From contig NW_026250421.1 in the NCBI RefSeq assembly GCF_024521635.1, positions 558,001 through 622,000 on the forward strand: 64,000 nt of DNA, read 5' to 3'. The position numbers and the translations under genes are program-made. The notes beneath the pieces are model-generated. The model made no database searches. It was given only the letters and a program-made list of their open reading frames with translations, and had not been told where the DNA came from. The stretch comes from Tricharina praecox. Lineage: Eukaryota. Every line of letters starts with the position of its first letter. Position 1 is the first letter of the stretch. Shown here one piece after another: positions 38,012 through 44,161 of this stretch.

Positions 38012-39017
38012 TTACGCCGACTGCGGGATAAGCGCGTACTCGAGCTGCCCGCTCCTCTCGAACTCAGCCATGTCCAGGGCCACCTCGGCGCTCTCCCTGA
38101 CCACCCTCTCCTCGTCTTTGGCATACTCCTTGAGGAACTCCTCCACCCGCTCATCTGCGATACTGCCAAGCGCCTCGACCGCCTCGTGCCGCACCATCGA
38201 CGCCTCGCTCTTGTTGCCGGCCGCCTTGATTAGGGCTGGGATCGAGTGTGGGTCCGACAACTGGCCGAACACGAATGCAATCTATCACCATGTGAGCCGT
38301 CGTCGTCCGGACATCAACCAGAAAAGAGGGCGGGGAAAAAAAAAAGAAAACCGCAATTACCTCGTGCCTAAACAGAGCACTAGGATCGTCCAGGCCACTG
38401 GCGAGCGCATCGATAGCCTCCGGCGATGCAATGTCCCTAAGCCTGAACATGGCGCGGTAGCGCTCAAATAGCGGCACGGACTGATCATTCAGCTTCATCT
38501 GCAGCTTCGCACAGTCGACCTCCTTGACAGTTCCGGGGAGCGGAGGAGCGGGATCGATGCTTGCGAACGCGCTTGTCTGCAGCAGCTCCGTTTTCGCCGC
38601 CTCGCTGGCCTCCCACTCGATGCGGGCGACCGCCAGCTCGCACGTCTGCGAGATCACCTCCTCCTTGTGGCCGATGTAGCTGCGCAGCAGCTCCAGCGAC
38701 GGCGTGTGGCCGAGCGCGCCGAGAGCTTCGCCGGCTTCGTGGCGGACCATAGAGTCTTCGGCCTCGTCTTGCAGCACGGCTTGCAGTGGCGCCGCCGCCG
38801 AGAATTGCTTGCTCTGCCCGAGGCAGTAGGCGAGCTCGTGCTTGAGCAGTGCGGAGTTCGAGACGAACGCCGCCGCAATCGCTTCCACTGCGGAGGTGTT
38901 GCCTTGCGTGGCTAGGTGCTTCAGCGAGAAGAGGGCGCGGAAACGGAGGGCGAGGTTCGGTGAGGCGTCATCGCACAGGATGCGGCAGAGCTCGGGCACA
39001 GGGTCGGTAATGGTCAT
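38012..39017 (-). CDS. LIA1: Deoxyhypusine hydroxylase
   Basis: HEAT repeats with four HE motifs ([32 protein letters not shown]). Intron 38282-38360. Confidence 0.95.
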
Positions 39018-39318
39018 TGTGGCTGCTTGGTCGTATGGGGAATTGGTCTGGTTTCTGAAAGTTGATGTTTTTTTCGAGCTCGTTTGTTTGGTTTGGTTTG
39101 GTTTGGTTTGGTGGGGCGAGATGAGGGACCCCGCGATCAAGATAGAAATTCTAGCAAAGTCTAGGCATCTGATAACTATAAACTGTGTGTGACATGCTGG
39201 CACGTGCTCATCTGTGTTTGTACCTCCTCCTACGCCCACTCTCCATCATTTGACAAACTCTCCAAAAACTCTCCAAAAACTCTGTATTCTATTCTGCGCA
39301 CAAAATTCATTCTTCCCC

Positions 39319-39815
39319 ATGGGTTCCGTTGTTCTTCCCCACCTAAACACCGGCTGGCTTGTTGACCAGACCATATTGACCGAGGAAGACCGCCTAGTGG
39401 TCATCCGTTTTGGACGTGACTGGGACCCGGACTGCATGCGACAGGATGAGGTTCTCTACCGTGAGATCACTTCTCTCCTCCATCCTTTTTTTTTGTGATG
39501 TATGATCCATCTAACCTCTTCCTAGGCATCGCCGATAGAGTCAAAAACTTCGCTGTTGTCTACGTTTGCGACATCGACAAAGTCCCCGAATTCAACAAGA
39601 TTTACGAGCTCTACGACCCCATGACCGTCATGTTCTTCTTCCGTAACAGACACATGAAGTGTGATTTCGGCACGGGAAATAACAACAAGATGAACTGAGT
39701 TCTGGAGGATAAACAGGAGTTAATTGGCATCATCGAGGCCATCTACCGGGACGCTAGGAGGGGTCGTGGTCAAGCGGTTTCGCCCAAGGACTACAGTACT
39801 AGTTACAGGTATTAG
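39319..39815 (+). CDS. DIB1: U5 snRNP thioredoxin-like protein Dib1/Dim1, interrupted by an in-frame TGA at 39696-39698 (possible pseudogene or recoded gene)
   Basis: MGSVVLPHL...RLVVIRFGRDWDPDCMRQDEVLY, intron 39461-39525, then ...DFGTGNNNKMN*VLEDKQELI...VSPKDYSTSYRY*. Confidence 0.9.
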
Positions 39816-39949
39816 GTTTGTGGGATTTGGTTGGACGGTGTTTTGATGGATCACAGGAGTTGGCGTTTCATTGTCTGATTGGGTTTAATTGGTTGGATAC
39901 CCATTAATTACCTCCTGCTGCTAGAGGGGTTGAATTGAACTCATCTATT

Positions 39950-40804
39950 CTATCGCTTGAGCTCCCTGAGCACCTTAACCGCGTCGGCCTCTGCGTTCAA
40001 GTCTCCAAACAGTCCCATAACATTTAAGCACCTTACTTGATCCCCCTTAGCTTTCGACTCCCTTAGTGCGCTCCGTAGGTCAATCAAGAGCGTCTCTTTG
40101 CACTTCTTCATCTTCGGCTCCTGCGCCTTCAAAAACGGGTGATCTGTCGGTATTCTGGGCAGCAGAAACCCCACGATGTAGACCCAGCTGTCCACCAGCT
40201 TCTGCAGCCGCTTTGTGCTGGTCAATCCCTCACCATCCTCCAGGAAACCCGGCGGACCCGTTCCAGAGTCGGTTCCGTCTAACAGCAGCAGCGACGAGAG
40301 TTCATCCAGCCGCTGCATCAGAGCCAACAGATTCCTGGCCAGAGCCTATCCCGTCAGCCCCTTCCACTCAGCCAGACCGGCGAAATCAAGTACCTTCTCT
40401 TGCCTGATCCGCTCCTTGACTCTGAGCTCCTTCTCGACCTCCGACTTCGTAGCCTCAATAGCCTTGACAATGACCTCGAGCTCCCTGCGGAAACCGAGCA
40501 ATCCGACCTTCAGGTCCTCGACCCTGCTCTCACCGCCTTTCACCGAGCTGCCCAACCCCACAAAGTCCGCATAGTCCCTGTTGACGAGCTCGACAAGCTC
40601 GCTCTCGAGGTTCTTGGAGCGCGTGCGCAGCTCCGCTCGCAGATCTTCGAGCGTCTGGTGCCGGTTCCGCAGCGAGGCGAGGAAGGCATGCGGCGAAAAG
40701 TCGGTTGAGCTCGGCGAGAACGCGTCTTGTGCCAGTGGCTCGGGAAAGGGCAGGTCGCTGTCACTGTCTCCGTCGCTGTCGGCCGGACCGAGTTGGAAGG
40801 CCAT
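39950..40804 (-). CDS. COG2: Conserved oligomeric Golgi complex subunit 2-like protein
   Basis: LPFPEPL...FLASLRNRHQTLEDLR.EL...LVELVNRDYADFVGLG matches the COG2 N-terminal domain. Intron 40346-40393. Confidence 0.85.
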
Positions 40805-41026
40805 GGTGAACTTGAGGGGTGGAGAGGGACGCTACTCTAGGTTGGGATCACTTAAGGGTAGTGTAAGTAGCGTAGTCCTGGGAGCCGCAGACACGGGTTA
40901 GGGTTTTCTGCGCGTCTTCTCGGTCGCGCATCGAATAGGCCTGGACCTTCCTTCTTACCACTGTGCATTCGTTTCCCTGGACACTCCTAACAGCAATTCA
41001 CCACAACAGACAACAAGCAAGCAGAC

Positions 41027-42759
41027 ATGGACAAGTACACGGATCACCTCGCCCAAGAGGTGATAGGAGATAGGAAGATTGTCAGTAACATTGTTTCCGC
41101 AGTAACCACAAGAGAGAGACAAACTGACTAGACTAGATCACCTACAGACAGCTCAGTCGCACCCTCAAAGTCCACGTCAATGTGGCCAAAGAGTATACCT
41201 CCTTCATCTGGTTCACTCAAGAACGAATGGGCTCAAGCTGACTTCCTTCTCAGGATGCTCTACGACTTCTACACCGTCCAGAACTCGAACGAGCCCGATG
41301 CCGTCCACGCCAACTACATGCTCACCGGCTACCGCCAGGAAGAGGACAAGAAGAAGGTTGAAGGGGCGGAGGGAGAAGATACGCACATGGAGGCATCGCC
41401 TTTCGAGGCTACACAGCAGCCGGACAAGGCTCTCGTGAGGTCTATTGTCGTCGTTCCTCAGGAGAAGCTCACAGGTACTACTCCCATCACCCCTAGCTCC
41501 TCCGGTACACTCACTAACTTACTCACCATCTCTAGAGGCAAAGGCGAAATTCTCAAGGCTCTCGAGCATCCACATCTACAGTCTGCAGTCGACCAAGCTC
41601 ACGGTACCACCTACGCTACACCCCCACCCCAACCTCCACCACACAATTCGTTTGCTGACGAAAGTAGGATCTACACATGGTCTCTGCTGCCGCCCAGGAG
41701 GTACTGGAGAGTGTCCAAGGCGAGGAAGCCAAAGAGATGGGACGGGTGTACGGAACGATCTCGAACCCTGAAGCGAAGGTAGACTTGAACAACTACTACT
41801 TATGATTTTCGACTATGGGAATATATGGACATTTGCTGAATCGTGCCCGGTGAACTTACAGCTCCGCTCCCAGCGCACGGTGATGTTGCAGACTGCCTCA
41901 CAGGCTCCGAAGAAGCCGGCCGCCTCCTCTATTACTACTCCCGGTCCGAAGAAGAAGACCGCCGCCAAAACTTCTCCCACAGAAAAGAAGAAGCCGGCGG
42001 CCAAGAAGTCGAATCCCCTCGCCTCCGCGTTTGCGAAGAAGCCGGAGGCGAAAGAGCAGCCTGCTACGAAGGAGAAAGCAACCCCTGAAAAGGCCGAGTC
42101 TGTGCCGGGAAAGGCCACCGAATCTGCGGCCAGCAAGAAAACGGCGAACGCCTTCTTCTCGAACTGGAATGCCGCTAGTCAGAAGGCGAAGGAAAAGAAG
42201 GGGAACTCCCAGGTCAGTCAGGTAAGCCACCCTCGGGGGTGATGGCTATATTGGAGTATTTATTAACGGCGGTAAATAGGCTACATCCCAGAGTCCCCCT
42301 GCCGAACCCAAGGACGAGAAGATGGAGTCTGACTCGGAGGCCGAGGAGCCTGCGCCCCCCGCTCGTGACATGGACGAAGACATCCGCAAGCGCAAAGCCA
42401 AGCGGGACGCGATCGAGGCCATGATGGACATGTCGGATGAGGAGAAGTCGCCTCCGACGAAGAAGAAGGCGCGTTCGCCATCGCCACCAGCCAAAACCGA
42501 GAGTCCTGAGCCGCCGCCAGCTAGCGGCCAGTCGGGCAGGAGACGCGGAAAGAGAAAGATCACCAAGAAAGTCACCAGTAAAGATGACGAGGGATATCTT
42601 GTCGTCAAGATGGAGAGCGTGTGGGAGAGCTATTCGGAAGATGAGGCGCCAGCCTCACCCAAGCCCAAACCGAAGGCCACTCCTGCTGCTGCCGCGAAGA
42701 AGGGGAAGAAACTGCCGCCACAGCAGGGCACATTAAATAACTTTTTCCAGAAGAAGTAG
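41027..42759 (+). CDS. POL32: DNA polymerase delta subunit 3 (Pol32/Cdc27), multi-exon
   Basis: ITYRQLSRTLKVHVNVAKEMLYDF N-terminus; KKVTSKDDEGYLV motif; C-terminal PIP box QGTLNNFF. Confidence 0.9.
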
Positions 42760-42904
42760 ATTTGTTAGGGAACATGGTGAATGCATGGTGTATCATAGTT
42801 TGTTTTCTTTCCGCGAGTAATAATAATGATGGGATTTGATCTATGATTATGACTGTACAATCGGATATCGCCAAACGCCTTTTCTTTCGCCACTCCGTTC
42901 TTCC

Positions 42905-43393
42905 TCAATTGTTGGTGTTGAACCGATGGCCACACTCACACCTGTAGAAAACCGTAGCCTATCCTCCTCCATCAGCCTCCCCGCCCCGTCACTCCCAGGA
43001 CAGCAGTTACTTACACCTTCATCGGCACTCCGCAGCTGCAGTGTGTAAAACCACATCTCTGGACTGCTGCACTCGGGACACACCTGCGAGATCTTCGCCT
43101 CGGTGTGCAAATCCTCCGGCGCAATAGTCTGCACGGCCGACCGCTTCAGCCTTAGCGAGGAGGGGAACGCTGCCGCGGTCGACTGAGTAGTGGTAGATTG
43201 CGTTGCGTCGTCTGTTCGCACACGTTCATCATTAGCACGAGAGGATGCGAGGGAGGGGGTGGGTGGGGGTGCGCGGGGAAGGACCGGTCGTGACGGAGTG
43301 GCACATCTCGCAGGTGAGTTTGTCGCTGCCCGGCGAGCGATCGAGGAGGTTGCCGCAGTCGGCGCAGAAGACGAGGGTGCCGACTTTTGACAT
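42905..43393 (-). CDS. RPA12: RNA polymerase I subunit A12.2
   Basis: FCADCGNLL zinc ribbon and TFIIS-like CPEC...YTLQLRSADEGATVFYRCECGHRF. Introns 43212-43284 and 42959-43014. Confidence 0.93.
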
Positions 43394-44161
43394 TGCGATT
43401 TGCCGGCTGTGCGTGGAGATGTGGAGGTGGAGGTGGCGAGCTGCGGTGGGTTGGTGGACGGCAACGGCGACGGCGGCGGTGGGGTGGTGGATGTGGAGGT
43501 TGGTGGATGCGGGAAGGTTATTTTTTGACAGGGATTGCCTTCGCGTGTGCTCTGGAGTCTGCGCGTGCAAAGGAACTTTCTTCGTGCTACTTGGGCCCAT
43601 GATGGATCACTCGGCTGGCTGCGTTTCGGGACTTTCCGAACAGGCTGTCCGTACGGGTGCTTGGGTCGCATGCAATCAATGGTTAAACAACACAAAATAC
43701 ATATCGGTACGGGTGACAGTTGTAGGTTTACTTGCCCAATATCACTTCCAACACAGCGGACTTCATGCCGGCGTTCAGCTAGTATTAATGACGGTTGACA
43801 GCTTCAGTGATCTTCTTCGCTCTGGCCATATAGAGGCACAAGCTTCGCCATCAATAGAGGACTACGATATTACTCTATAGCCACAGCTTCGCAATATGCG
43901 GCGAAGAAGATCGATAGCTGTCGCCCTCAAAACATCCTCCGCCTTCCCCCTCTATATACCCCGCACTCCGGATTAGGTTCATGGGTAGATTACTCCAGAT
44001 CCAGGCTATGCAGCGCAATTTATCAAAACGTCGTCCGTTTGTCGTGACGCACGACATAGGTACATGAACCTGCAGGGTGTGCACAGACCACCGGCTATCC
44101 CCGCCTTCGCAGCTCCCCGCAATACACCTCGCACCGCCCCACCCCGCGCTCACCACAAGCC

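Follow-up and report, generated by a model that had tools for sequence, protein, structure and literature searches.

Dib1 (also Dim1 or TXNL4A) is the U5 15 kDa protein of the U4/U6.U5 tri-snRNP. Yeast Dib1 lacking its 13-16 C-terminal residues causes severe growth and splicing defects, and its residues L130 and V131 contribute to the function of the tail near Prp8 and U6 (PMC13560316). The gene is essential and normally single-copy, yet Cyanidioschyzon merolae has it twice in one organism, as two intact paralogs that are ~97% identical (PMC13584999). The intact pair of C. merolae is the closest precedent found in the literature for the locus described here, and a search on Dib1/Dim1/TXNL4A paralogs, pseudogenes and truncations yielded no description of a duplicated or interrupted DIB1 in Pezizomycetes. 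Two broader classes of genes are also comparable. Transcribed duplicated pseudogenes combine a disabling mutation with a functional paralog, raised protein divergence and transcription from an intact promoter. Premature-stop-correction genes of the Fusarium type are intact, transcribed genes of filamentous ascomycetes that carry an in-frame stop at the Trp codon of their orthologues, where a single A-to-G change restores the codon; their stop is UAG, in which U precedes the A that is edited; it is mostly found in hairpin loops, and its editing has been shown in perithecia (PMC11156358, PMC10776026, PMC4817773).

The DIB1 copy examined here lies in a window of 64,000 nucleotides, by which I mean the whole stretch of DNA that was analysed. 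It is 74-82% identical to canonical Dib1 in exon 2 and has the same frame length, but it has a stop at codon 105 and is altered at D115, K126, L130 and V131. Whereas both paralogs of C. merolae are intact and nearly identical, the pair described here consists of a canonical copy and a diverged one whose frame is interrupted. Unlike the usual transcribed duplicated pseudogene, the damaged copy occupies the ancestral syntenic locus, has one lesion only and bears a footprint of purifying selection upstream of it. In contrast to the premature-stop-correction genes, the stop is UGA, its A follows a G, the site lies in a predicted stem, no edited contig was seen and a paralog is present.

The gene is a two-exon DIM1/DIB1 gene, colinear with a 143-codon gene without indels (39319-39815; Table 1). 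Exon 2 spans 39526-39815, and the split codon (C in exon 1, GC in exon 2) bridges the intron. The stop sits in the context AAC AAC AAG ATG AAC TGA GTT CTG GAG, and the translation after it ends in ...SPKDYSTSYRY before the TAG. When compared with the Pfam DIM1 profile (PF02966, profile length 133, curated cut-off 27 bits), all three coding pieces exceed the cut-off: exon 1 matches profile positions 1-43 (E=1.4e-16), the pre-stop part of exon 2 matches positions 45-100 (E=1.5e-26), and the post-stop part matches positions 103-133 (E=2e-07, 31.3 bits). Because the match continues across the stop, the TGA falls at about profile position 101-102. Human hDim1 (PDB 1qgv) aligns at E=6.2e-46 and has W in the TGA column, as do 33 of 39 distinct full-length homologues of 143 aa (the remainder have F in four cases and L in two) and 20 of 22 metagenome loci translated with a simple two-exon model. 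In the other two of these loci, L066 and L067, the frame is lost before the TGA column because of an extra intron. The central observation of the preliminary description, a TGA placed exactly at a conserved Trp with the frame open to the normal C-terminus, thus agrees with the sequence, the profile, hDim1 and the homologues, and the intron that it had called intact has its GT..AG ends and CTAAC, with a joint seen in two public contigs.

Table 1. Features of the DIB1 copy and its immediate neighbours, with positions in the window
Feature	Positions	Strand	Evidence
5' untranslated region, DIB1-copy transcript	39268..39318	+	RNA-type contigs X1/X2 start at 39268/39273; weak hint of transcript start
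Exon 1	39319..39460	+	ATG at 39319; 47 codons plus first base of split codon 48; translation
Intron, 65 nt	39461..39525	+	GTGAGA start, CTAAC branch site, AG end; joint 39460>39526 in X1 and X2
Exon 2, pre-stop part	39526..39695	+	codons 48-104; Pfam DIM1 match
In-frame TGA, codon 105, conserved Trp column	39696..39698	+	X1, X2 and X3 contigs identical
Post-stop in-frame codons (n=38)	39699..39812	+	family residues 106-143; Pfam DIM1 match
Terminal stop TAG, family-standard	39813..39815	+	relatives' genes end at same position
3' untranslated region	39816..39894	+	end of X2 contig at 39894
LIA1 (deoxyhypusine hydroxylase), upstream neighbour, divergent	38012..39017	-	named matches; stop TAA 38012-38014
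COG2 3' part and N-terminal domain exon, downstream neighbour, convergent	39950..40831	-	Pfam COG2_N E=9.4e-20; stop TAG

As a member of the DIM1 family, then, the copy matches the full length of PF02966. The TGA at codon 105 interrupts the 142-143-codon frame that would carry a functional C-terminal tail, and three of 37 columns that are invariant in the 39 homologues have been replaced (D115G, K126R, L130Q). Frameshift, second stop and damaged splice signal are all absent, and no second DIM1 was found elsewhere within the 64,000-nt window. Intron content varies among the other DIM1 loci: there is no intron at all in the DIB1 of L001-L005, L007, L012, L013, L016, L018 and L019; other fungal lineages have extra introns in the equivalent of exon 2, which break the frame after ...ELIDIV (L058/L059) or after ...RNKHM (L066/L067); and in L014 the translation breaks near the C-terminus at an additional intron.

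Seven public runs from four studies match the stretch, and contigs from one run of each study (X1, X2, X3 and X5) were examined. X1 (39268-39460 joined to 39526-40100) and X2 (39273-39460 joined to 39526-39894) skip exactly 39461-39525, bounded by GT..AG, and are therefore RNA-derived; their RNA nature is taken from these spliced joints, and they come from samples of unstated stage. X3, a soil metagenome DNA contig, retains the intron (39342-40100). None of the three has a single other letter. The DIB1 copy is transcribed and correctly spliced, and its majority transcript retains A at 39698, minor variants being invisible in contigs. That three studies, two with RNA-type data and one with DNA, give the identical TGA excludes a sequencing or assembly error, which the preliminary description had kept in view; had the error been real, TGG would have appeared in the public contigs, and they carry TGA, DNA contig X3 included. 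Alternative splicing around the stop was considered and rejected, as the RNA contigs are continuous from 39526 past the TGA, with no joint recorded in that stretch.

The contigs also show a few features of the surrounding sequence. The sole variant at the window's own locus is a T>C at 40052, present in X2 and X5 and absent from X1 and X3, which suggests at least two haplotypes or strains in the public data. The X1 contig with the DIB1 copy is 1396 nt long and extends beyond 40100 into the convergent COG2 (stop 39950-39952), so that the 3' ends of the two convergent transcripts either overlap or have been merged; in X2, by contrast, the contig stops at 39894. Between LIA1 and DIB1 a short GTTTG-type tandem repeat (ggtttggtttggtttgg...) occupies 39077-39125 and was flagged as a skipped repeat at which reads seem to be cut, and a direct repeat, 'ctctccaaaaa ctctccaaaaa ctct' (39250-39285), lies directly before the transcript's apparent 5' end and extends into it. 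No run has contig coverage over 38900-39267, gaps are wider in some runs, and no conclusion is drawn from them.

The best named matches of the LIA1 neighbour are Sphaerosporella brunnea (82%), Trichophaea hybrida (80%), Ascodesmis, Rhizina, Geopyxis, Morchella and Pyronema omphalodes (70%). These matches make the window species a Pezizomycete near Pyronemataceae, in agreement with the class to which the preliminary description had looked for precedents. Among metagenome contigs, 73 DIM1 loci were detected. In four of these, L011, L006, L008 and L009, an intact DIB1 with TGG lies between LIA1 upstream and COG2 downstream, both on the opposite strand, so that the LIA1-DIB1-COG2 order supposed for relatives is borne out; in L020, LIA1 lies upstream of DIB1 and the contig then ends. 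Further downstream in the window lie a gene for a Cdc27-like DNA polymerase delta subunit (41132-41779, + strand) and one for a TFIIS zinc-ribbon protein (42850-43803, - strand), in the same order as in L011. The intron of the window copy is at the position that it has in the close relatives. Synonymous distances of DIB1 from the window copy are 0.90 to L020, 0.73 to L011 and 1.26 to L006; those of the neighbours are 0.65 and 0.69 for LIA1 and 0.63-1.0 for COG2, with both at 1.3-1.6 to L006/8/9. Since DIB1 is about as distant as its flanking genes and synteny is kept, the window copy is, by position, orthologous to the normal DIB1 of the relatives.

All four runs examined also contain an mRNA or gene contig of a second DIB1, which is 85% identical to the window copy over 196 nt. 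Its contig matches 39317-39338 exactly and then has 122 other letters, the length of the remainder of exon 1. Against 39526-39721 there are 29 differences in 196 nt (X1, X2 and X5), and in X3 the same region is covered by two overlapping contigs (39516-39657 with 24 differences, 39628-39721 with 10). The DNA form in X3 has 168 letters between its two matches, which places an intron at the same position as in the window copy. The continuation is canonical in all four runs (...LIDIVETIYKG...). Of 22 listed differences (39557-39680), 15 are synonymous and seven are replacements, and at all seven replacement sites the second copy agrees with the relatives; the listed differences omit ~31 nt at the ends of the pieces, and base 39698 of the second copy lies outside the listed part. 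Contig depth, a poor measure of expression, is 545 for the second copy and 276 for the window copy in X1, 285 and 7.85 in X2, and 6.9 and 6.95 in the DNA of X3. The almost equal depths in DNA hint weakly that both copies are in one genome, and the differing RNA ratios of X1 and X2 hint weakly at regulated expression. The two DIB1 copies probably share one genome.

Where the second copy came from is suggested by L010, the locus of a relative, whose DIB1 has the same ...DIVET... variant and lies more than 4 kb from any LIA1 or COG2. A maximum-likelihood tree was built from 14 DNA rows, with the second copy represented by a 133-nt fragment that fills 31% of the columns; in it the fragment groups with L010 (support 96/91), and both fall inside a clade (96/98) with the window copy, L020, L011 and L006/8/9. 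The same fragment is 92-94% identical to L020, L011, L006/8/9 and L010 alike, so the placement with L010 is favoured only by the tree and by a likeness of the 5' leader judged by eye. The grouping implies that the duplication predates the split of the window's species from the species of L010. The flanking genes of L010 (AAA ATPase with DUF7608, HAUS4-like, and alpha-L-arabinofuranosidase C-terminal domain genes, in L010 1-8285) are a possible landmark for the locus of the paralog in the window's genome.

The protein of the window copy has diverged rapidly. At 23 of its 143 positions it departs from every one of the four close relatives; dN is 0.07-0.08 for the window copy, as compared with 0-0.02 among the relatives (whose dS is 0.7-2); and its end branch in the tree is 0.16 long, as compared with 0.048 for L020 and 0.058 for L011. 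A closer relative of the diverged form was not found, the best identities being 82% and 86%, and at most 83% among the 73 metagenome loci. Pairwise omega is nevertheless 0.05-0.11, or about 0.15-0.2 when half of the dS is put on the branch of the window copy, which is far below 1 and similar to the values for LIA1 and COG2. Neutral evolution, which the preliminary description had associated with a dead copy and had proposed to measure downstream of the TGA, seems to be approached only in the 38 downstream codons and does not describe the copy as a whole.

The two sides of the stop differ in how they have changed. Upstream, codons 1-104 have 13 replacements (dN 0.054), none of which hits any of the 26 invariant columns, whereas downstream, codons 106-143 have 8-9 replacements (dN 0.116-0.145), with three of 11 invariant columns hit, those of D115G, K126R and L130Q (Fisher p=0.021); relative to the close relatives the downstream changes include D115G, G123D, K126R, L130Q and V131A. 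When compared with 20,000 simulated neutral sets on four measures, the upstream replacements are more conservative than neutral ones (BLOSUM p=0.014) and avoid invariant columns (p=0.021), and at 10 upstream sites the replacing residue is seen in other homologues, against 2.7 expected. The downstream replacements resemble neutral ones on three measures (p=0.25, 0.83 and 0.60) and depart weakly from randomness in the number of sites whose new residue occurs in other homologues (4 against 1.3 expected, p=0.03). The contrast between the two parts is one of small numbers (13 and 8 changes) and several tests; it suggests that the post-stop part has been freer to change than the pre-stop part. The conservative upstream replacements indicate that selection has acted on the protein during most of the time it has evolved separately, and perhaps still does. 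A predicted fold of a canonical relative was poor (mean pLDDT 47.1) and plays no part in these conclusions.

At sites where the relatives agree, 35 changes are specific to the branch of the window copy, 21 of them transitions (C>T 7, A>G 7, G>A 4, T>C 3) and 14 transversions. This spectrum is not like that of repeat-induced point mutation (RIP), which was rejected as the cause. The TGG>TGA change is outside the CpA context typical of RIP. The four G>A changes (A18T, V80M, W105*, G123D) are all non-synonymous. The same branch has 16 GC>AT and 11 AT>GC changes, G+C across the DIB1 copy (39000-40000) is 0.47 as compared with 0.55-0.66 in LIA1 and COG2, and GC3 is 0.67 as compared with 0.72-0.79 in the DIB1 of the relatives, a composition that fits relaxed codon-usage selection.

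On this evidence the window copy is probably a transcribed, degenerating ancestral DIB1 that an older duplication has made redundant. According to this explanation, the duplication would have put a second, canonical DIB1 at another locus in the lineage, and the original copy between LIA1 and COG2, now redundant, would have come under relaxed constraint and then have acquired the nonsense mutation W105* (TGG>TGA). With promoter, start codon, intron signals and frame still intact, the gene is transcribed and correctly spliced, but ordinary translation would end at codon 105. The product would be a fragment that stops at residue 104 and lacks the last 39 residues, which are indispensable to canonical Dib1 function. 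The copy thus presumably makes no working Dib1 contribution, being either a transcribed pseudogene or a duplicate in a late stage of degeneration. In support of this are the canonical DIB1 in four of four runs, the accelerated divergence of the protein, the syntenic locus, the genuine TGA, the grouping of the paralog fragment with L010, the apparent release of the post-stop part from constraint, the severe effect of much shorter C-terminal deletions in yeast and the failure to find a closer relative of the diverged form, and the first two of these also favour the decaying or diverged paralog that the preliminary description had listed among its own objections. Of the marks of a duplicated pseudogene, the lesion in one copy is shown and a canonical paralog co-occurs in the runs; codon 105 of the paralog is outside the listed part. 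Against the explanation stand the low pairwise omega, the conservative upstream changes, the single lesion, the intact splice signals and the abundance of the X1 transcript (depth 276).

Some of these same observations would be expected if the 104-residue N-terminal fragment, or the upstream frame, had been selected for a new or regulatory role, for example competition with canonical Dib1 for a partner, with the C-terminal third dispensable. The upstream changes are conservative and spare the invariant columns, while the downstream ones are not and do not; the gene is expressed and spliced with its signals intact; and the depth ratio to the paralog differs ~18-fold between X1 and X2, a weak point. 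However, the whole region beyond residue 104 is gone, and much shorter deletions at the C-terminus already cost yeast Dib1 its stability and function (PMC13560316). Moreover, no homologue of the diverged form was found in other species to show that it has been retained (at most 86% identity, including the 73 metagenome loci), and only 13 and 8 changes enter the statistics. I regard a selected truncated product as doubtful.

Restoration of the stop by RNA editing was part of the main suggestion of the preliminary description. A-to-I editing of 39698 in sexual tissue would convert UGA to UGG, so that full-length variant Dib1 would arise only while fruiting bodies develop. Several features make this attractive: the stop is exactly at the Trp codon of the orthologues, one A>G change restores Trp, and the frame is open to its normal end. 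All four G>A changes listed above are revertible in the same way, which includes the two other deviations that the preliminary description had singled out, DQT for DQA (T18 for A) and YRD for YRG (D123 for G), both of which prove to be G>A changes. The window species is also near Pyronemataceae, and sexual-stage A-to-I editing has been reported for Pyronema confluens, with 2,772 sites (PMC5381528; PMC11156358).

The details of the site are less favourable. Both RNA-type contigs keep A, although contigs drop minor variants and the stage of the samples is not given. The described fungal system strongly prefers U at -1 and hairpin loops, and all its described corrections are of UAG to UGG (PMC11156358; PMC10776026). 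Here the context is C-U-G-A-G, with G at -1, and the other three G>A sites (A18T, V80M and G123D) have G, C and G in this position. For 39661-39735, the minimum-free-energy fold places the UGA in a predicted stem and is no better than shuffles (z=-1.18). Furthermore, a restored protein would retain D115G, K126R and L130Q at invariant columns. Pezizomycete editing is said to have arisen independently of the Sordariomycete system (PMC10776026, PMC11087585). No statement on the site preference of Pyronema editing was found in the main text of PMC5381528, and word counts in its supplementary table (TGA 44, TAG 207) pool the two species, every type of change and the words of the header. That table may be relevant to this reading, and so may FairBase, a resource that PMC7306014 names. 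On balance, restorative editing in sexual tissue seems unlikely. A more elaborate form, in which the UGA at Trp105 is a developmental switch, edited to UGG in apothecia by the Pezizomycete system so that a divergent Dib1 joins the tri-snRNP only in sexual development, with the A18T, V80M and G123D codons possibly converted too and the canonical paralog serving vegetative splicing, is distinctly improbable. If true, it would provide the first core spliceosome subunit gated by editing, and with it the first restorative site of the UGA type.

Translational readthrough, in which a near-cognate tRNA decodes the UGA in some ribosomes and yields full-length protein at a low level, draws on the facts that UGA is the leakiest stop, that Trp-tRNA is among its near-cognate decoders (PMC4748822) and that the downstream frame is open. 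The context is not a leaky one, since UGA-G ranks below UGA-C and UGA-A in yeast and favours Cys-tRNA over Trp-tRNA (PMC4748822), no significant downstream stimulatory structure is predicted, and the downstream residues look unconstrained. Readthrough is therefore very improbable, and the editing- or readthrough-gated copy of the preliminary description has gained no support from the A kept in the RNA contigs, the G at -1, the predicted stem or the UGA-G context.

That the TGA is an artefact, or is read as Trp across the nuclear genome, is barely conceivable even though TGA and TGG are one base apart, since the same letters recur in three independent studies, 40 of the 87 long open frames in the window end in TGA (which rejects selenocysteine as well), exon 1 uses TGG for both of its Trp residues, and no in-frame TGA turns up when the neighbouring genes are aligned with those of relatives. 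Dikarya are not known to have selenoprotein machinery.

Returning to the degenerating ancestral copy, its practical consequence is one of annotation: the copy at the LIA1-DIB1-COG2 locus should not be called a functional DIB1. More generally, an in-frame stop at a Trp codon in a fungal class capable of editing is by itself no evidence of restorative editing. There is a small chance that the upstream selection signal reflects a truncated regulator or a stage-specific recoded variant. The window copy is an expressed, nonsense-bearing duplicate, a kind of gene already known, and as such is of modest interest. What it probably illustrates is the turnover by duplication, neat but ordinary, of an essential, nearly invariant and usually single-copy gene, in which the copy at the ancestral locus degenerates and a relocated duplicate takes over.
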